Assembly (NCBI GenBank): GCA_903858085.1
Contig: CAIOHJ010000103.1
Span: forward strand, 21,598-85,597
Length of the DNA: 64,000 bases
Direction of reading: 5' to 3'
Origin: an uncultured Chloroflexota bacterium
GTDB lineage: Bacteria > Chloroflexota > Anaerolineae > Caldilineales > Caldilineaceae
Made by a program: the position numbers and the translations under genes
Shown here: positions 36,748-44,930 of the stretch, piece after piece
Layout: the number at the start of each line of letters is the position of its first letter
How positions within the stretch are numbered: the stretch's first letter is position 1
Notes under the pieces: generated by a model
Told to the model about the DNA's origin: nothing
What the model saw: the letters and a program-made list of their open reading frames with translations, nothing else
The model's database searches: none

Positions 36748-38946
36748 ATGATGAAAAAATGGTTGAGACAACTCGAACACAACGGACCGCTGCTCTACGT
36801 GTGGATCGCCCTGCTGCTGGTTGCTGGGCTGGTCGCAGCCCCGCTTGTCGCCGTGCCCGCCGTCGCCCAGAGCAGCCTGGATATGGGGAAAACGGCGGTC
36901 GCTGGCCTGGACGGCGCTCTCCTGATGGACCAGCCAGATGGCAGTCCGCTGCAGAAGTTGGCCGCCGGTGAAGTCGTGACAGCCATCGGACGCACGCCGG
37001 ACAGCCAGTTTCTCTGGGTCGTCACCGACCGCCAGGTCGAAGGCTGGATTCAGGCGAGCCAGCTCGTCATCTTTGGCGCAGCCAGCCTGCCGGTGATCGG
37101 AGGGGATGCCGCCACAGCAGCCGCGTCGCCGACAACACCCAGCACAAAAAATACGCCGCTCGTGACGGCGACACCGGCAGCGACCGCCACACCGACTGTC
37201 CCCCCGACACCGACCGTCACGCCGACGCCGACCATCCCCCCGACACCGACCGTCACGCCGACGCCGACCGTCCCCCCGACACCGACTGTCACGCCGACAC
37301 CGACTGTCACGCCGACACCGACCGTCCCCCCGACGCCAATTCCAACCAGCGACGCGATCGGGGTCACACTTGGGGAGGGGGCCTTGCTGTACAAAACCCC
37401 GGAAGGCGAGCGCTCCCAGGAATTGCCCGGCGCTGAAGCAGTCAATGTATTGGGGCGTACCACCGACGCAACCTGGCTGCTGGTGGAAACGTTCGACGGC
37501 AAACAGGGCTGGCTGCCAGCAGAGCAACTGGTGACGTTTGGCATCGAGGAGCTGCCTGATTTGAGCGGCCAGCCGGCCACCGATCCGTCAGCTGCCGCAG
37601 CGGTTGCCCCAGCGACCCCAACGGTTGTGGCCGCCGAGGAGACATCGATGATCTCTGCTGCCAGCGGGGCTGCGGAGGAGCAGAGGGTTGTCGCCAGCGG
37701 GGCAGTGACGACGATCGACACCCGGCTCAACATTCGTTCTGGCCCTGCCAGCAGCTCCCCGATCGTCGGCAAAGCAGCCAGCGAAGAGCCGCTTGCCGTC
37801 GCAGCCCGCAGCAGCGACAACCTCTGGCTCTTGATCGTGCGGGCCGACCTCCCTGCTGGAGCCGGCTGGGTTGCGGCCGAACTGGTCACCCTGGAAGGCG
37901 CTGTCGGCGACCTGCCGGTGGCAACCGACACCTTTGAGGACACGGCTGCGCAAGAAGCCCCTGCGAACTGGCTCCCTACTGCGACCGCTGAAGCTGCGAT
38001 GCCGGCCCCCCGACAGGCTTCGACGGGGCTCGACGGCACCCTTGTTTTTCAAGACGGACGCGGCGCACTCTATGTGTACGACTTGGCAAGGGGCTCTGTG
38101 CGTTACCTGACCAGCGGCTTTGACCCGGATATCAGCCGGGATGGCAGCAAGGTCACCTTCGTGCGCGACGGGGTGTACACCATCCAGATCGACGGGACAG
38201 GCGAACGCCTGCTCCACCGCAGCGAGCTGGTGACCTCCCCCAAGTGGAGCCCGGACGGCCAATATGTGCTCTTCAGCCGGCTGCTGGGGGAGTACAAATG
38301 CTGGGACACCGAATTCTTCGGGTGTGTCAGCGTCAAGGAACTCTCTGGTCGCTTTCCGGGTGCGCCGCCAGCCATTCTCCAATCCATCTTCTTGAGCGGC
38401 TACGACCGCATCTCGCTGCCCAATTTTGGCCTGTCTCGGGTCGACGCTGACGGCAAAGAATTTCGGGATGTGGCGGCGCTTGACTCTGCGATGGCCCCTG
38501 ATTGGAGCGACGGCGGGATCGTCTACCAGTCCAAGGCAGGCCTCGAGGTGACCGACGACACCGCCGACGCCGACACCCGGTCGGTACAAAATGCGCACTG
38601 GGACTGGGACCCGGACTGGGCACCCGACGGCGGGCGCATCGTTTACCAGTCCAAGGAGGGACCCCACTGGGAAATTTTTAGCATCTCTCCGGATGGAAGC
38701 GGGGTCTTTGCCTTGACCCGACCGGTCACAACCCTGGTCGACGAACTGCCCAGCAATGTAGCCCCTGCTTTCAGCCCCACTGGCCAGCAGATCGTCTATT
38801 TGAGCAATCGCGATGAGGAGAACGACGCAGGTCCCTGGCGGCTTTGGGTGATGGCAGCAGATGGCAGCAACCAGCGTCCACTGCCGATCGAAATTGAAAT
38901 TTCTTATGGATACGGTGGGGAGCAAGTTGTCAGCTGGGGACCGTAA
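36748..38946 (+). CDS. Secreted or anchored protein: three SH3b-like domains, Pro/Thr linker, C-terminal TolB/PD40-like beta-propeller
   Basis: Repeated GR..D..W.......GW patterns; P.WSPDG, PDWAPDG and PAFSPTG blades. Confidence 0.82.
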   Translation: MMKKWLRQLEHNGPLLYVWIALLLVAGLVAAPLVAVPAVAQSSLDMGKTAVAGLDGALLMDQPDGSPLQKLAAGEVVTAIGRTPDSQFLWVVTDRQVEGWIQASQLVIFGAASLPVIGGDAATAAASPTTPSTKNTPLVTATPAATATPTVPPTPTVTPTPTIPPTPTVTPTPTVPPTPTVTPTPTVTPTPTVPPTPIPTSDAIGVTLGEGALLYKTPEGERSQELPGAEAVNVLGRTTDATWLLVETFDGKQGWLPAEQLVTFGIEELPDLSGQPATDPSAAAAVAPATPTVVAAEETSMISAASGAAEEQRVVASGAVTTIDTRLNIRSGPASSSPIVGKAASEEPLAVAARSSDNLWLLIVRADLPAGAGWVAAELVTLEGAVGDLPVATDTFEDTAAQEAPANWLPTATAEAAMPAPRQASTGLDGTLVFQDGRGALYVYDLARGSVRYLTSGFDPDISRDGSKVTFVRDGVYTIQIDGTGERLLHRSELVTSPKWSPDGQYVLFSRLLGEYKCWDTEFFGCVSVKELSGRFPGAPPAILQSIFLSGYDRISLPNFGLSRVDADGKEFRDVAALDSAMAPDWSDGGIVYQSKAGLEVTDDTADADTRSVQNAHWDWDPDWAPDGGRIVYQSKEGPHWEIFSISPDGSGVFALTRPVTTLVDELPSNVAPAFSPTGQQIVYLSNRDEENDAGPWRLWVMAADGSNQRPLPIEIEISYGYGGEQVVSWGP
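37171..37340 (+). repeat. Degenerate 18-bp tandem repeat encoding (TPTVPP/TPTVTP)n
   Basis: About 8-9 units such as ACACCGACCGTCACGCCG. Confidence 0.85.
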
Positions 38947-38959
38947 TCTCACTCTGGAA

Positions 38960-38996
38960 AAAATCAGGCTGGGGCAAATATCGCCCCAGCCTTTTT
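38960..38996. terminator. Bidirectional intrinsic terminator between convergent genes
   Basis: AGGCTGGGGC/GCCCCAGCCT stem, A-run before and T-run after. Confidence 0.85.
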
Positions 38997-39402
38997 AATT
39001 GGCGTCTCCCACGATCTGACGCTGCAATTTCTGCAGAGGCGTCACCCCGTGGTTGATCGCCACAGGACGCAACTCGGGGTTCAGGACCACGGTGGCCGGC
39101 ACCGTCATGATGCCGTACAGGTCAGCGAGCGCGCGCTGTTCGATGGCGTCGAGCTTGTGCACGGCGACATCTAACCGGGCTTGCAGCTGGGCCAGAATTG
39201 GGGTCTGCTGCAGCCGGCACTGCGCACACTCGTGGGTCGTGAAATAGAGGACAGCAGGTTTGCCGCCTTGCACAGCAGGTGGCACGGCTGGGGGGGCTTT
39301 TTGCAATTCTTGGAGCTGGCGCTGCTGCCAATGGCGCCAGAGCCCATAAAGAAGCGCTGCTGCCAGAGCGATTGCAGCAACGATCAGCACTCTTTCCAAC
39401 AT
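38995..39402 (-). CDS. Membrane-anchored thioredoxin-family protein
   Basis: N-terminal TM; CAQC (CxxC); VPAT cis-Pro region. Confidence 0.85.
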   Translation of the reverse strand: MLERVLIVAAIALAAALLYGLWRHWQQRQLQELQKAPPAVPPAVQGGKPAVLYFTTHECAQCRLQQTPILAQLQARLDVAVHKLDAIEQRALADLYGIMTVPATVVLNPELRPVAINHGVTPLQKLQRQIVGDAN

Positions 39403-39415
39403 GGCACACCCCTTT

Positions 39416-39874
39416 TTAGGATTGCTTGGTTTTGACAGCAGCCGGCCAGGAGGGCAGCACGGGGGTCACGCCCAGCCTCCCCAGCTGGTAGAAAAGAAAA
39501 CAGCCTGCGCAGAACCCCAGAAACAGGTTGACGGCAGCCAGAGCCACGACCAGCCAGGCCAGCGTCCAGCCAGCGACGGGCAGCGCACCCCAGAGCAGCC
39601 CTGCGCTGGCCAACAAAAAAAGTCCGCCAAGCCCCTGGGCAAAGAGATGGGGGCGAAGGTCATCTTTGCGTAGATCAGGGCGGAGCCAGCCCTGCGGCGC
39701 GATCAGCCGGGTATAGACAAGTTTGAACAGCCCAGCCTGCGGCCATATCGTGCCGACCAGCATCACTGCGGCCACGGCGGCGACCAGCCCGCGCGCATCC
39801 AGGAGAAAGGCCACCACCACCAGGCTGACAATCGCGGCCTGGTTAAAACGCAGCGCAGCATAATCGACGTTCAT
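39416..39874 (-). CDS. DUF4395-family membrane protein
   Basis: RFNQ, P..FAQGLG and LFLGFCAGC motifs. Confidence 0.82.
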   Translation of the reverse strand: MNVDYAALRFNQAAIVSLVVVAFLLDARGLVAAVAAVMLVGTIWPQAGLFKLVYTRLIAPQGWLRPDLRKDDLRPHLFAQGLGGLFLLASAGLLWGALPVAGWTLAWLVVALAAVNLFLGFCAGCFLFYQLGRLGVTPVLPSWPAAVKTKQS

Positions 39875-39919
39875 TTGGTCTCTCCTTTGCAAATGCCGAG
39901 CAGGGAGGAGCCCCCCTGC

Positions 39920-40855
39920 TCAGCCAAACAGCCCCAGACTGACATATTTGCTGCCGTCGTCGGGCAGCACGGTCACGATGCAACCTTTTTGCACCTGGTG
40001 GGCCAGCGCCACCGCCACTTGCACAGCTGCACCGGCGCTGATCCCGACAAAGAGCCCACCAGTTCGAGCCAGCTGCTGGGTCATTGTCCAGGCATCTTCG
40101 CTGGCCACCCCCCAGAAACGGTCCGGGAGGCCGGCATCGTAGATCCCCGGTACGATCGCACTTTCCAGATGCTTCAACCCCTCGATCACCGCAAGCTCGT
40201 CTTCAGGCTGTACAGCGACCAGCTCGATCGCTGGGTTGCATTCCTTCAGATAGCGTCCGGTCCCCATGAACGTTCCGGTCGTGCCCAGCCCGGCCACAAA
40301 ATGGGTCACCCCTCCGGCGCTTTGCTGCCAAATTTCTGGGCCCGTCGTCGCATAATGCGCCTGCCAGTTGGCAGGGTTGTTGTACTGGTTGGTGTAGACA
40401 TACCGTTCGGGGGCAGCGGCCACGATGGCGCGTACGGTTTCGATCGCGCCGTCTGAGCCTTCCAGCGGGTCTGATTCGATCAAGGTGGCCCCGTAGGCCT
40501 TGACCAGCGCCTTGCGTTCGGCGCTGACGTTGGCTGGCATGACCAGCTGTACCGCATAGCCCTTGACCGATCCGATCAGGGCCAGCGCGATGCCAGTGTT
40601 GCCCGAGCTGCTGTCGATCAAAATTTTGCCGGCTGTCAGCTGGCCAGAACGCTCGGCTTCTTCGACCATGCGCAACGCGGCGCGTGCTTTGATAGAGCCG
40701 CCGGGGTTGGTCCATTCCGCCTTGGCCAACACTCTGACCGAACTTGGCACCCCCTGCCGATGGGCAAATTCGCTCAAATCCAACAGGGGGGTGTTGCCGA
40801 TCTGGGCCAGGATCGTGCTGGCGGCTGGGGTACTGGGTTCAAGCGTGCGAAGCAT
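39920..40855 (-). CDS. cysM: PLP-dependent cysteine synthase, CysM type
   Basis: IGNTPL, NPGGSIK, SSGNTG, GLGTTGT, GISAGA; basic residue in IEGLKH rather than the CysK-type IQGIG. Confidence 0.88.
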   Translation of the reverse strand: MLRTLEPSTPAASTILAQIGNTPLLDLSEFAHRQGVPSSVRVLAKAEWTNPGGSIKARAALRMVEEAERSGQLTAGKILIDSSSGNTGIALALIGSVKGYAVQLVMPANVSAERKALVKAYGATLIESDPLEGSDGAIETVRAIVAAAPERYVYTNQYNNPANWQAHYATTGPEIWQQSAGGVTHFVAGLGTTGTFMGTGRYLKECNPAIELVAVQPEDELAVIEGLKHLESAIVPGIYDAGLPDRFWGVASEDAWTMTQQLARTGGLFVGISAGAAVQVAVALAHQVQKGCIVTVLPDDGSKYVSLGLFG

Positions 40856-40870
40856 GGCCGGGTTCTCCTC

Positions 40871-42091
40871 TCAGACAGCAACCTGTTCGATGCTCTGTTC
40901 GCGTGCTGGGAAACCACAAAACTGTTCGTAGTCGATCAGCTGGGTCACGGTGGCGTGCTCCCCGCAGAGCGGGCAGTCCGGGCTGCGCTGCACCTTGAGC
41001 GTGCGGAAACTCATGTCGAGCGTGTCGACCATCAGCAGCTGGCCCACCAACGATTCACCCACACCCAGGATCAGCTTGATCGCTTCGATCGCCTGGATAG
41101 AGCCGACGATCCCGGGCAGCACGCCGAGCACTCCGGCTTCGGCGCAGCTGGGCACTTCGCCGGGCGCAGGTGGTTCCGGGTAGAGACAGCGGTAGCAGGG
41201 GCCGCCGCGGAGCCCGTGCTCCGGGGAATCAGGCAGATAGACAGTTGCCTGGCCCTCGAACATAAAGATGCTGCCGTCGACCAGCGGTTTGCCCAGCATA
41301 TGGCAGGCATCATTGACCAGGTAGCGGGTGGGGAAGTTGTCTGAGCCATTGAGCACAATGTCGTACTGGCGGAGGATCTCCAAGGCATTGTCGCTGGTCA
41401 AAGGGGCGTTGTGTGGCACGACCTTGACATCTGGGTTGATGTCACGGATGCGGTCGGCGGCCGACTCCACCTTGGGACGGCCGACATCCTTGTTGCCGTG
41501 CAGCAGTTGCCGCTGCAGATTGGAGACATCGACGACATCGAAATCGACGATGCCGAGCGTGCCGACACCGGCAGCTGCCAGGTACATGGCAGCCGGGCTG
41601 CCCAGCCCGCCCGCCCCGATCAGCAACACTTTGGCTTCCAGCAGCTTGATCTGGCCAGCCTCGCCCACCTCTTTGAGCAGGGTGTGGCGTGAATAGCGCA
41701 GCCGTTGATCGTCGCTCAGGATGCGTGGCACCGTGAAGCGAAAACCGACGTTTTTCCAGCCGTTGAAACCGCCGATCATCGAGGTCACTCGGGTGTAGCC
41801 CATCTCTTTGAGGTTGCGGGCAGCCAGCAACGAACGCACACCGCCCGCGCAGTAGACCACGACGGGCGCATTCCGGTCGGGCTGGTGCTGTTCGATCTGC
41901 AACTCCAGGTAACCGCGTGGGATGAAGATCGCATCGGGCAGGTGTCCCTGCACAAACTCGTCGCGCTCGCGAATGTCGACGATCGTCACCGGCTGGCGGG
42001 CATCGATCTGTTGTTTGACCTGGTGTACGGTGAGCTCGGGCACCTCACGGCGGGCCCGGTCGAGCAGCTGGTCTCGGTTGAGCGCTGTCAT
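40871..42091 (-). CDS. moeB: MoeB/MoeZ-like adenylyltransferase with N-terminal rhodanese domain
   Basis: Rhodanese loop CAGGVRS; RYSRH, GAGGLG, SNLQRQ, SDNFPTRY, CYRC, SCAEAG, CPLC. Confidence 0.92.
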   Translation of the reverse strand: MTALNRDQLLDRARREVPELTVHQVKQQIDARQPVTIVDIRERDEFVQGHLPDAIFIPRGYLELQIEQHQPDRNAPVVVYCAGGVRSLLAARNLKEMGYTRVTSMIGGFNGWKNVGFRFTVPRILSDDQRLRYSRHTLLKEVGEAGQIKLLEAKVLLIGAGGLGSPAAMYLAAAGVGTLGIVDFDVVDVSNLQRQLLHGNKDVGRPKVESAADRIRDINPDVKVVPHNAPLTSDNALEILRQYDIVLNGSDNFPTRYLVNDACHMLGKPLVDGSIFMFEGQATVYLPDSPEHGLRGGPCYRCLYPEPPAPGEVPSCAEAGVLGVLPGIVGSIQAIEAIKLILGVGESLVGQLLMVDTLDMSFRTLKVQRSPDCPLCGEHATVTQLIDYEQFCGFPAREQSIEQVAV

Positions 42092-42094
42092 CGG

Positions 42095-42373
42095 TCACCC
42101 CTCTCCGCCAGCCATTGCCGGCACAATCGAGACCTTGTCCCCTTCGCGCACGGGTGTATGCAGCCCCTGCAACCCCCGAATTTCATCGTCGTTGACAAAG
42201 ACATTGATGAATCGTTTGACGTTGCCGTCGTCGTCGAGCAGCCGGTCGGCTACGCCCGGGTACTGGGCATCGACCGCCTGGATCAGCGTGCCGATGTCGG
42301 TGCCGGTCGCCTCCACCTTGGCCAGACCGCCGGTCAGCCGGCGCAGGGGGGTAGGTACATAGACTGTCGCCAT
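42095..42373 (-). CDS. ThiS/MoaD-family sulfur carrier (CysO-like), C-terminus GG-EG
   Basis: VPTPLR, INVFVNDDEIR, GDKVSIVPAMAGG-EG; GAAAGAGGA SD. Confidence 0.92.
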   Translation of the reverse strand: MATVYVPTPLRRLTGGLAKVEATGTDIGTLIQAVDAQYPGVADRLLDDDGNVKRFINVFVNDDEIRGLQGLHTPVREGDKVSIVPAMAGGEG

Positions 42374-42397
42374 AAATTGAGTCCTCTTTCTTTGCTC

Positions 42398-42429
42398 AAA
42401 AAAAAACGAGCCATCCGGGGATGTGCTCG
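42398..42429 (-). terminator. Intrinsic terminator in the leader of the sulfur-carrier operon
   Basis: Minus strand CGAGCACATC-CCCG-GATGGCTCG (9 bp, one bulge) followed by T9, just upstream of the SD. Confidence 0.82.
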
Positions 42430-42576
42430 GCAAAATTTGTTTTTGGGTGATGAACAGCGTGCAGAAACGTGTCTAGCAGAAAACTGTCACAATCGATTCT
42501 ATTCAGATTTGCCTGGGCACATCTTCTCCTGTTGGCGGTCAGCGGGAAACGGCCAGCGCCTTGCTGGCTGTCCCCG

Positions 42577-42630
42577 CTATCGACACAAGCACGTCAGTTG
42601 TGATGCCTTCTGGCAAAGCTGTTTCTGCAT
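42577..42630 (-). CDS. Putative Cys-containing leader peptide MQKQLCQKASQLTCLCR
   Basis: 17 codons with 3 Cys, between the promoter and the leader terminator; no strong SD. Confidence 0.4.
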   Translation of the reverse strand: MQKQLCQKASQLTCLCR

Positions 42631-42685
42631 TTTCAGTCAATTTCTGAACTTCAGCGATTTGAAAATAATTCAAATGGCAGCTTCC

Positions 42686-42713
42686 AGTATAGCCAGAGCG
42701 CTGCTGCTGTCAA
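42686..42713 (-). promoter_or_regulatory. Sigma70-type promoter of the sulfur-carrier operon
   Basis: TTGACA-N16-TATACT on the minus strand. Confidence 0.75.
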
Positions 42714-42854
42714 GCTGAAGGATTGGCTGTACGGTATAATTCCTTCCACTTGACGGCAGCTTCCCCCCCCGACAATTGGCCAGGTTTCCCCAGATGGCGT
42801 ACAATCGATCGCAGATTGTTTGTATCCGCTCTTCACCTGGCCAGGAAATGCTCC

Positions 42855-44762
42855 ATGACACCTGCCTATTCGATTCAATCGTTGTTGGCCGCCCGCCAGT
42901 TTGTTGCACCGCAGCGGGTAGGAGATCGTCTTTATTTTATCAGCGACCTCTCTGGCCGCCTGAGCCTGTACACCATGCGGGTCGGCGGCAGCGTCCCCGA
43001 GCCCTTGGTCCCGCCCGATCGGGCGCTGCCCAACCCCCATCTGCTGGAGGGGGGAGTGGTTTTTTGTGTGCTGCCTGCGCTCGGCCAGATCTTGTTGATG
43101 CTCGACTGCGACGGCGACGAGAACTACCAGCCCGTCTTTGTCCCGATCGACGGGGGTCTGCCCGTGCCGATCTTTGGGGATCGCTTCAGCGGCCAGCAAG
43201 TTCTTTGTTCGGCCTGCGACCCCCAGCGGGGGCTGGCCTTGTTCAATGTAGACCCACGGCGCTCCCCGTGGTTGGAGTCCTTTCGTGCCGATCTGGCGAC
43301 ACGGGAGTTGACCAGCCTGGGAAGCAGCCTCTATGGCAACTTTCCTGTGGGCCACGACGCCCCAATGAACATGGTCCTGTTGGCGGACCAGTACACAGCC
43401 GGCGATGTCGTCTGGTACCTCTGGCGCAAGGGAGGGGACGAACGCCAGCTGCTGTATGGGACGCCGCTGGAAAAGCGGGTACCTGGAGAGCCGACCGTGC
43501 CCAACGGGCTCGGCAATGCCCAGGTTGTCGACGACAGAGGGGTACTGTTGATCTCGGCACTTTTTTCTGACACCTATGGGCTGGGCTACTTGTCTCTGCA
43601 AGACCCCACAGAGCTGCTGCCGGTCAGAGTCCAGGGCACACGCCACAGTGGAACAGGCGAACTGGTGGGCCTGCACGCAGCGCTTGACCAGCGCTACCGG
43701 CTGGTCTACAACATCGACGGCGCCTCCTGGGTTTACATTGGCCACTTTGACCGCGACCGTCTGCATTTCGAGGTCGACCAGCTGCTGGTCGGCGAAGAGG
43801 AGTTCAGCGACGGGGTCCTCGAATCGTTCAGCACAGACCCTCTCTCCCGTTCCCATGTGCTCTCTTTTTCGACGGCGACCTCGCCTTCGCAGCTTTACGT
43901 GGTGGAGCCCGCTGGCAGCGTGCAGCGTCAGACCCACGAACGGTTGTTGGGGATTCCCCGTCGGCTGTTGGCGGCGGGAGAAGAGGCCCCCTACCTTTCG
44001 CACGACGGGCTGCGCGTCTCCGCCCGCCTCTATCTGCCGTCGGCTGAGCTGGGCTTTGTGGGGCCGCGCCCGGTGATCTTTTACATCCACGGTGGCCCAC
44101 AGAGCCAGGAACGCCCCGATTTCACCTGGTTTTCGATGCCGCTCATCCAATTTTTCACGCTCAACGGCTTTGCCGTGTGGGTGCCGAATGTGCGGGGCAG
44201 CGCCGGCTATGGGCTGGACTACATGAAGCGGGTGGACCGGGACTGGGGAGGGCAGGATCGGCTCGACCATGTCGCTGCCTTCGAGCGGCTGCGCCAGGAC
44301 AGCCGGCTGGACATGGCGCGCGCCGGCGTGATGGGGCGCTCCTACGGGGGGTACATGACCCTGATGCTGGCTGGGCGTCACCCCGAGCTCTGGAAGGCGG
44401 CCTGCGACATGTTTGGGCCTTCCAACCTCCTGACCTTTCTGGAGCGCATCCCAGAAGCCTGGAAGACCTACTTTACCCTGGCGATCGGCCACCCGCACCA
44501 CGACCACGGCCTGTTGGTCGAGCGATCCCCCAGCACCTATCTGCACCAGATCGCCTGTCCGCTGCTCGTTCTGCAGGGGGCCAACGACCCACGGGTGGTC
44601 GAACAGGAGTCGAACGACGTCGTTGAGCGGCTGCGCAGCCAGGGCAAACGGGTCGACTACGTGGTCTACCCCGACGAAGGGCACGATGTCCTCAAATATC
44701 CCAACAAAGTGGACTGCTACAGCCGGATCACCGAATTTTTCCGGCTGCATCTGCAGCCCTGA
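42855..44762 (+). CDS. S9-family (prolyl oligopeptidase/acylaminoacyl) peptidase
   Basis: IHGGPQ, PNVRGSAGYG, GRSYGG, QGANDPRV, DEGH. Confidence 0.92.
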   Translation: MTPAYSIQSLLAARQFVAPQRVGDRLYFISDLSGRLSLYTMRVGGSVPEPLVPPDRALPNPHLLEGGVVFCVLPALGQILLMLDCDGDENYQPVFVPIDGGLPVPIFGDRFSGQQVLCSACDPQRGLALFNVDPRRSPWLESFRADLATRELTSLGSSLYGNFPVGHDAPMNMVLLADQYTAGDVVWYLWRKGGDERQLLYGTPLEKRVPGEPTVPNGLGNAQVVDDRGVLLISALFSDTYGLGYLSLQDPTELLPVRVQGTRHSGTGELVGLHAALDQRYRLVYNIDGASWVYIGHFDRDRLHFEVDQLLVGEEEFSDGVLESFSTDPLSRSHVLSFSTATSPSQLYVVEPAGSVQRQTHERLLGIPRRLLAAGEEAPYLSHDGLRVSARLYLPSAELGFVGPRPVIFYIHGGPQSQERPDFTWFSMPLIQFFTLNGFAVWVPNVRGSAGYGLDYMKRVDRDWGGQDRLDHVAAFERLRQDSRLDMARAGVMGRSYGGYMTLMLAGRHPELWKAACDMFGPSNLLTFLERIPEAWKTYFTLAIGHPHHDHGLLVERSPSTYLHQIACPLLVLQGANDPRVVEQESNDVVERLRSQGKRVDYVVYPDEGHDVLKYPNKVDCYSRITEFFRLHLQP

Positions 44763-44930
44763 GCCTGCTGGCTGTCCGCAGAGGGCTTCCGCAGGCGCCA
44801 AGAGGATCGCCTGAGGCCTCCAGGCGAACAGCCAGTTTGGGCAAGGTCGCCGAACGCGACGGCTGCCGAGCAATGGTGCTCGGCAGCCTGTTTCCCCTGA
44901 CTGTGCACGATTGTGCACGGTTCCCCTACA

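Follow-up and report, generated by a model that had tools for sequence, protein, structure and literature searches.

The window analysed here is a stretch of 64,000 nucleotides from an uncultured member of the Caldilineaceae (Chloroflexota, Anaerolineae, Caldilineales; GenBank assembly GCA_903858085.1, contig CAIOHJ010000103.1, positions 21,598 to 85,597 of the forward strand). Its minus strand carries, at 38995-42373, five same-direction genes with one terminator at their end, which encode a sulfur carrier, an activating enzyme (E1), a cysteine synthase of the CysM type, a membrane protein of the family DUF4395 and a membrane-anchored thioredoxin-fold protein (Trx) (Table 1). The intergenic gaps are 3, 15, 45 and 13 nt in this order, and the first-pass annotation, which had described five tightly spaced co-oriented genes closed by a single terminator, proved correct in coordinates, domains and spacing. 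The upstream neighbour (an S9 peptidase gene) is divergent and the downstream one (a gene for an SH3/PD40 protein) is convergent, and the five-gene unit is therefore self-contained. A 755-aa minus-strand open reading frame (ORF) at 42651-44918 was rejected as a further member of the operon; it has no Pfam match and is a shadow of the plus-strand S9 peptidase gene. We read the transcription unit as one for cysteine synthesis on a protein thiocarboxylate that is turned on when cysteine is scarce and includes an accessory membrane dithiol pair, and give this reading an even chance of being right.

Table 1. Features of the five-gene unit and its surroundings, in the order of its transcription. aa, amino acids; PLP, pyridoxal 5'-phosphate; RBS, ribosome-binding site; TM, transmembrane.
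Feature	Position	Strand	Details
S9 peptidase gene	42723-44762	plus	divergent upstream neighbour
Sigma-70-like promoter TTGACA-16 nt-TATACT	42713-42686	minus	11/12 consensus matches
17-codon Cys-codon leader ORF MQKQLCQKASQLTCLCR, then stop	42630-42577	minus	three Cys codons, tail ...TCLCR-stop
Conserved hairpin GCCAGC...GCTGGC directly after leader stop	42568-42552	minus	invariant stem
Attenuator terminator hairpin GCCGAGCACAUCCCCGGAUGGCUCG + U9	42431-42398	minus	~25 nt before carrier RBS
CysO-like ThiS/MoaD-fold sulfur carrier	42373..42095	minus	92 aa; Pfam ThiS 55 bits; C-terminus AMAGGEG
E1, N-terminal rhodanese + ThiF/MoeB adenylyltransferase	42091..40871	minus	406 aa; Rhodanese residues 21-114, ThiF 133-374
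CysM-type PLP cysteine synthase	40855..39920	minus	311 aa; PALP 223 bits
DUF4395 membrane protein	39874..39416	minus	152 aa; PF14340 93 bits; motif GFCAGC; four TM helices
TM-anchored thioredoxin-fold protein	39402..38995	minus	135 aa; one N-terminal TM helix; CAQC; cis-Pro TVPAT
Bidirectional intrinsic terminator closing operon	38992-38966	both	GC-rich 12-bp stem, 8 GC pairs, T-runs on both strands
SH3/PD40 protein gene	36748-38946	plus	convergent downstream neighbour

The first three genes had been recognised as a set of the CysO/MoeZ/CysM type, and this assignment stands: the best match of the carrier in the PDB is Mycobacterium tuberculosis CysO (3dwg_C, E 8.6e-21, full length). In the window carrier the GG motif is trailed by EG, and most relatives have 1-6 residues past GG; a peptidase is therefore required to expose the diglycine. 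The E1 scores 280 bits with Pfam ThiF and 76 bits with Rhodanese, its rhodanese active-site loop reads CAGGVRS, and the ThiF part contains CxxC pairs of the Zn type. Its rhodanese domain is indeed N-terminal, but this is a known architecture rather than the peculiarity it was first taken for, because NCBIfam NF006444 (PRK08762, rhodanese-N-terminal MoeB-type adenylyltransferase) matches the whole length of the protein (547 bits with a cut-off of 449; residues 7-393 of 406). The CysM protein scores 351 bits with TIGR01138 (cysM), below the cut-off of 394, and its PDB matches are enteric CysM (239 bits) followed by M. tuberculosis CysM (3dwg_A, 210 bits); the latter enzyme is specific for O-phosphoserine. 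A CysK-like paralogue with 40% identity to the operon CysM is encoded elsewhere in the same genome (G000; C232:714-1619).

The operon E1 is the sole ThiF-family E1 detected in this genome, which is 94.6% complete and encodes four or five carriers of the ThiS/MoaD family (contigs C316, C103, C35, C299 and C104). Probably, the single E1 serves several pathways (thiamin, molybdenum cofactor, tRNA thiolation and cysteine carriers); a parallel is Thermus TtuC, an E1 common to several pathways. The statement that mec (JAB/M67) is missing holds for the operon, but not for the genome, since one Prok-JAB gene, the only one, is present on another contig (G000:C156:15518-15859) and carries the motif HSHPVSVAYPSATD. 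Furthermore, ten relatives of layout A (loci with the gene order of the window operon, carrier-E1-CysM-DUF4395-Trx) were found by tblastn to have JAMM genes at a distance of 0.5-1 kb ahead of the carrier; the JAMM protein of the window organism and the Mec protein of layout B served as queries. The match lengths fit the long form of the own-genome protein, and we infer that the upstream genes of the sister taxa are its orthologues. In the genome of the window organism, the single JAMM gene (contig C156, L010:3599-6435, minus strand), whose product has 220 aa and a C-terminal extension, adjoins genes for a YedY/sulfite-oxidase-like molybdoenzyme and a MiaB-like radical SAM methylthiotransferase (neighbours assigned from their translations).

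On these components the route would proceed as follows. The JAMM peptidase encoded elsewhere would trim the GG-EG tail of the carrier, the E1 would adenylate the terminal glycine and the rhodanese persulfide would turn it into a thiocarboxylate, CysM would join the thiocarboxylate to activated serine, and the JAMM peptidase would free cysteine from the carrier. Compared with the CysO-CysM-Mec pathway of M. tuberculosis and its MoeZ(R) (Rv1334-1336, Rv3206c), the window organism has the same ThiS-fold carrier, CysM-type PLP enzyme, ThiF-plus-rhodanese E1 and genome-encoded JAMM peptidase, and its relatives possess the full cysM-mec-cysO...moeZ cluster. In contrast to the mycobacterial system, the rhodanese domain of the window E1 is N-terminal, so that the domain order is the reverse of that of MoeZ, the carrier ends in GG plus EG, mec is unlinked, the operon additionally comprises DUF4395, Trx and a leader attenuator with Cys codons, and the only ThiF-family E1 found serves a genome with 4-5 carriers. 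No gene of the sulfite reductase family NIR_SIR or of the families of 3'-phosphoadenosine 5'-phosphosulfate and adenosine 5'-phosphosulfate reductases was detected in the 94.6% complete genome, and the organism therefore probably relies on reduced sulfur sources.

The region ahead of the carrier gene suggests how the unit is controlled. The promoter lies ~310 nt before the carrier start, within the divergent intergenic region common to the S9 peptidase gene, and is followed by a short ORF with three Cys codons. Leader-type ORFs with a tail of the ...TC(L/S)CR type are present upstream of the carrier in 24 of the 29 layout-A relatives, and the codons TGC-TTG-TGT-CG (Cys-Leu-Cys-Arg) and the stop are invariant across 17 aligned leaders. 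In 3 of these 17 sequences the hairpin after the leader stop shows compensatory changes from A-U to G-C. The terminator hairpin GCCGAGCACAUCCCCGGAUGGCUCG is kept in relatives and present in both the minimum-free-energy and the centroid folds (z-score of the leader, -2.7). Between the two hairpins the leaders contain a conserved element, GCAAGCGATGAGC, for which two alternative pairing partners can be read by eye, the region of the Cys codons and the terminator's 5' arm; such pairings resemble those of classical attenuators. An Rfam scan of positions 38500-43200 at E<=1 returned only a chance miRNA match, and the leader is therefore no known riboswitch or T-box. With a conserved short ORF containing Cys codons, hairpins and a terminator ahead of the first gene, the window leader looks like a cysteine-sensing leader-peptide transcription attenuator. 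If it is read in this way, all five genes, including those for DUF4395 and Trx, would be expressed when Cys-tRNA is short.

Cysteine leaders also precede DUF4395 genes in other contexts. They stand directly before stand-alone DUF4395-Trx fusion genes, where they end in ...C-x-C-(x)-C-R-stop, and directly before DUF4395 of the Limnocylindria type, where they end in ...GRCSCxxRA-stop. In rhodanese-linked Actinomycetota loci, leaders likewise placed directly before DUF4395 match NF042933, the Cys-rich leader peptide of the Ms5788A family (54-56 bits, cut-off 45); the window peptide, with its 17 aa, is below the length that can be scored against this model. A genome-wide screen for small ORFs with Cys tails upstream of DUF4395 exceeded its reverse-strand control only modestly (14 vs 7, 12 vs 4 and 10 vs 5), and the claim of leaders therefore rests on the conserved leader families and not on raw counts. 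In M. smegmatis, the Ms5788A leader switches on Ms5788, cysA2 and Ms5790 under cysteine limitation (10.1101/834739). By gene order, Ms5788 would be the DUF4395 protein, and DUF4395 is thus probably the first gene of the operon controlled by Ms5788A. If so, the polycysteine leader Ms5788A/Rv0815A and its operon Ms5788-cysA2-Ms5790 (10.1101/834739) share with the Chloroflexota and Actinomycetota loci a Cys-codon leader over DUF4395 and a rhodanese. The leaders differ in their design: the window leader has 17 codons with three Cys (...TCLCR-stop) in place of a poly-Cys run, and the intrinsic terminator behind it implies control at the level of transcription, whereas the mycobacterial leader masks the Shine-Dalgarno sequence.

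The two membrane proteins of the operon are found together in many genomes. Among the 80 DUF4395 loci closest to that of the window, all from the class Anaerolineae, a Trx gene directly follows DUF4395 in 80/80 (both Trx queries combined), and nearly all of these loci carry genes of the pathway, mainly in two orders. Caldilineales have the order carrier-E1-CysM-DUF4395-Trx, and Ardenticatenales, Promineifilales and others have cysM-mec(Prok-JAB)-cysO-DUF4395-trx-moeZ(ThiF + C-terminal rhodanese)-rhodanese (checked with Pfam for locus L050). Carrier-CysM-Mec-DUF4395-Trx-carrier-E1 and DUF4395-Trx-CysK-CysE-like are further orders. DUF4395 is encoded in 130 of 301 Chloroflexota genomes (one-per-genus sample) and in 114 of 301 Actinomycetota genomes, i.e., in about 40% of the genomes sampled; both tallies include unpublished genomes (G272, G173, G570, G303, G476, G320, G450, G422 and G528), on which none of the statements about individual loci depends. 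Of 89 one-per-genus Chloroflexota loci, 53 have Trx next to DUF4395 or fused with it; of 58 Actinomycetota loci sampled, 42 have an adjacent, upstream or fused Trx. In Actinomycetota, a two-domain rhodanese is encoded directly downstream of DUF4395 in 6 loci, the order cysK-cysE-trx-DUF4395 was found once and a divergent carrier plus PALP gene twice. Moreover, 14 Actinomycetota loci possess directly upstream of DUF4395 a gene for an HTH_20 regulator, which could act as a sulfane-sulfur sensor; 9 of these 14 regulators bear a TusA-like domain at their C-terminus. These ArsR-like regulators belong to L314, L319, L320, L325, L328, L329, L331, L333, L336, L343, L345, L346, L348 and L349.

Both proteins bear a CxxC motif (GFCAGC in DUF4395 and CAQC in Trx), as had been pointed out in the first-pass annotation. 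The window DUF4395 protein is well above the gathering cut-off of PF14340 (24.5 bits), with its C-terminal CxxC (C122 and C125) present, and A79, G83, C122 and C125 are the only positions conserved to >=90% in 62 diverse DUF4395 sequences. Its AlphaFold2 model (mean confidence score pLDDT, 95.5) has four TM helices and an amphipathic loop helix; TM4 is followed by a short helix that bears the CxxC at its N-cap. The window Trx passes the Pfam cut-offs for Thioredoxin_2 (29.1, cut-off 27) and Thioredoxin (25.4, cut-off 23.5), and its top PDB matches are thioredoxins. In five Chloroflexota lineages (L133:1860-2225, minus strand; L134, L178, L201 and L187), the codon for the first Cys of the DUF4395 motif is replaced by an in-frame TGA (...F(TGA)MLC..., ...GF(TGA)LGC...), probably a selenocysteine codon at what would be a catalytic redox residue, which makes these proteins candidate UxxC selenoproteins. 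Three more TGA cases at DUF4395 are listed for Actinomycetota.

The distribution of charges predicts on which side of the membrane these motifs lie. In Trx, the 15 residues that follow the TM helix contain on average 3.9 lysines plus arginines, compared with 0.88 ahead of the helix, and the C-terminal side is the more positive one in 105 of 114 homologues. In DUF4395 these residues are frequent at the N-terminus (1.85), in loop 2 (4.68) and after TM4 (~2.5), but nearly absent from loop 1 (0.08) and loop 3 (0.03). The positive-inside rule would therefore place the two CxxC motifs, together with every conserved polar residue, on the cytoplasmic side; DUF4395 is predicted to be N-in/C-in and the Trx domain to be cytoplasmic on an N-out anchor, an orientation that fits cytoplasmic sulfur chemistry. 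In one Chloroflexota family, DUF4395 and Trx are a single polypeptide that combines the TM4 CxxC, an Arg-rich linker and a small Trx-like domain (...AFSHPLCTDC...VPT...) with no TM helix in between, and in such fusions both motifs must lie on one side. Six of the fusions (L147, L149, L152, L153, L176 and L196) contain one more CxxC (RRYCxxC), which lies in the cytoplasmic loop 2, and all six loci possess a Cys-codon leader of their own; the fusion gene of L149 is monocistronic. In Actinomycetota there are frames of fusion-like length (267-268 aa), and no DUF4395 fusion was found when lengths above 267 aa were searched, which is weak evidence. In another protein, P0112 (246 aa; five member sequences on two contigs), what was called a ThiS-type carrier (...IAGG-SGADTNRK...) is in frame with DUF4395; if this fusion is real, the carrier would first be part of a membrane protein, from which cleavage after GG would release it.

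We propose, without committing ourselves further than to equal chances for and against, that DUF4395 and Trx act as an accessory relay of dithiols and disulfides on the inner side of the membrane, which supplies or processes sulfane sulfur for assimilation. In favour of this are the shared operon with the pathway genes, the Cys-codon leaders, the close pairing of DUF4395 with Trx, the conserved CxxC, the predicted topology and the sulfur-related neighbours. In this relay the CxxC of DUF4395 (UxxC in some relatives) would be placed at the cytoplasmic end of TM4 and the thioredoxin domain in the cytoplasm on its N-out anchor. The target of reduction by Trx would be a persulfide or acyl-disulfide, carried by the rhodanese/E1 or else by DUF4395, whose own persulfide could stem from membrane-soluble or thiosulfate-derived sulfur species, and the sulfur would then pass to the carrier or leave as sulfide. 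Thioredoxins are known to cooperate with rhodaneses in the reduction of thiosulfate or persulfide, e.g. with GlpE/PspE in E. coli. If Trx served as the reductant of a rhodanese persulfide, this would account for the association of a dedicated Trx with rhodanese-bearing E1s and with CysA2-type rhodaneses. Unlike in those systems, the window Trx, whose activity is putative, is tethered to the membrane and paired with an integral membrane CxxC protein.

A small helical membrane protein with Cys residues and a partner of the thioredoxin fold, which is tethered or in some species fused, is likewise found in DsbB-DsbA, VKOR-Trx fusions, CcdA/DsbD-ResA and MauE-MauD. This likeness raises the possibility that DUF4395 is an inward-facing thiol:quinone oxidoreductase similar to DsbB or VKOR, which moves electrons from the tethered Trx to membrane quinone; the resulting disulfide would trap sulfide as persulfide and pass it to the rhodanese, an oxidative form of the sulfane delivery that the first-pass annotation had in mind. 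The four-TM bundle, the CxxC at the membrane interface, the sometimes fused Trx partner, as in known quinone-coupled systems, and the conserved polar residues, all at one membrane face, are in accordance with it. However, DsbB-DsbA, VKOR-Trx and CcdA-ResA act outside the cytoplasm, whereas the DUF4395/Trx motifs are predicted to face it, and some DUF4395 members have a probable selenocysteine at the first Cys. Foldseek and VIA-align searches against the PDB returned no DsbB, VKOR, CcdA or transporter match (DoxX, VKOR and DsbB profiles were not built), and homology to MauE (PF07291) was rejected, as hhalign of 62 DUF4395 against 14 MauE sequences gave a probability of 0.6% and E 0.1. The family has no known quinone-binding motif, oxidation of sulfide followed by its re-reduction would be costly, and a link of DUF4395 to cysE-cysK, i.e., to a user of free sulfide, would be left unexplained. 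We thus regard a quinone-coupled enzyme as quite improbable.

The proposal of a sulfane-sulfur relay has several points to its disadvantage. In the literature searched, DUF4395 is named in two papers, in passing, and neither biochemical or genetic results on a member of the family nor an assigned function came to light. The structure comparisons of DUF4395 with the PDB yielded generic four-helix bundles and no functional hint, its look-alikes outside PF14340 in the Protein Atlas amount to a single unnamed cluster at 0.77, which is uninformative, and the topology is based on the positive-inside rule. Only 12 of the one-per-genus Chloroflexota DUF4395 loci show cys, E1 or carrier genes, and for the majority of DUF4395-Trx pairs outside Anaerolineae no sulfur gene could be recognised at distances of up to 5 kb; in the clustering of neighbours there, no family besides Trx occurred in more than ~10 of the 89 Chloroflexota loci. 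In an even sample of Anaerolineae the pair lies within the 1.5-kb flank of CysM orthologues in 12 of 29 loci, leaving ~17 without it. Finally, genus g2, which belongs to the same family as the window organism, has carrier-E1-CysM without DUF4395-Trx, and DUF4395 is wholly absent from a g2 genome that is 100% complete and consists of a single contig (G094). The co-occurrence on which the first-pass annotation had made its idea depend thus holds for nearly all of the 80 closest loci, but it is not universal in the phylum.

The possibility that DUF4395-Trx is required for the CysO route is rejected by genus g2. This genus and the linkage of DUF4395 to cysE-cysK show that the pair has an accessory part in sulfur or redox chemistry and is not an obligatory relay step. 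The idea of a sulfur module stands insofar as DUF4395 and Trx make up a redox pair that is conserved, in some cases fused, and repeatedly found linked to genes of sulfur transfer in two phyla; the feeding of the rhodanese put forward in the first-pass annotation is a conjecture, weakened by the closest sampled genus, which has carrier-E1-CysM and no DUF4395. The same dispensability in the nearest genus, together with the scarcity of sulfur-gene neighbours outside Anaerolineae, could mean that the pair is a protective or housekeeping redox module (e.g., for the repair of oxidised membrane-proximal thiols or the detoxification of reactive sulfur species arising in assimilation) that is merely co-regulated with cysteine synthesis. 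This is hard to reconcile with Cys-codon leaders placed directly ahead of stand-alone DUF4395-Trx genes and with the repeated recruitment of the pair, in at least five gene orders, into cysteine and carrier operons, and we consider it very unlikely.

The linkage to cysE-cysK itself comes from a Trx-less DUF4395 subfamily of Limnocylindria-type Chloroflexota, in which cysE-cysK directly follow DUF4395 in 14 of 80 loci; it needs no rhodanese or carrier and to that extent also weighs against the sulfane-sulfur relay. The loci in which cysE-like and cysK genes follow are L216, L217, L220, L221, L225, L226, L247, L248, L251, L258, L259 and L261-L263. In the same subfamily, a weak PALP gene lies upstream in ~14 loci, with a carrier in between in 5, and DUF4395 adjoins an E1, or Mec-carrier-E1, in 5 loci. 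The upstream genes encode a threonine-synthase-like PALP protein and a ThiS-like carrier, resembling MetM/MetO. A function beside or after CysM that needs no carrier would be that of a cysteine salvage reductase, in which the substrates of DUF4395-Trx on the inner side of the membrane would be oxidised forms of cysteine, for example cystine, mixed disulfides or S-sulfocysteine made from thiosulfate by a CysM-type enzyme. Leaders responding to cysteine starvation suit any cysteine-supplying function, the window CysM is closer in score to the enteric, thiosulfate-using CysM than to that of M. tuberculosis, and the pair is dispensable for carrier-E1-CysM. In many genomes, however, the pair sits between cysO and moeZ, its rhodanese and TusA-like neighbours suggest sulfane sulfur rather than disulfides, no cystine or thiosulfate transporter is linked to it, and there is no obvious reason to embed a reductase for soluble substrates in the membrane. 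Salvage of oxidised cysteine is therefore an unlikely role.

The proposed sulfane-sulfur relay and these three alternatives are inseparable by sequence alone. A broader interpretation, which we advance tentatively and hold to be somewhat less probable than not, is that DUF4395 with its tethered or fused Trx represents an undescribed class of cytoplasm-facing membrane redox enzymes with catalytic cysteine or selenocysteine, induced by cysteine starvation and responsible for a missing step of sulfur acquisition; as one candidate for this step, sulfane sulfur that is membrane-soluble or derived from thiosulfate would be mobilised by reduction and made available to rhodaneses, carriers and cysteine synthases. 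The promoter, the Cys-codon leader with its terminator, the predicted cytoplasmic position of the CxxC motifs, the TGA variants and the linkage of the pair across two phyla are new with respect to the first-pass annotation.

In sulfur-carrier pathways (CysO, Urm1, ThiS, MoaD), it is poorly defined from which source the sulfur comes in vivo and which reductant sets the thiocarboxylate free. DUF4395-Trx, a conserved, selenocysteine-capable and membrane-bound dithiol pair that is co-transcribed with a CysO-type pathway, is a testable candidate for this source or reductant, backed by Cys-sensing leaders in several phyla and by rhodanese and TusA-like neighbours. This gives a hypothesis of function for a Pfam family without a known role and links the family to an experimentally studied mycobacterial cysteine regulon. 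Furthermore, it points to a way in which bacteria with no apparent assimilatory reduction of sulfate may get the sulfur for their cysteine.

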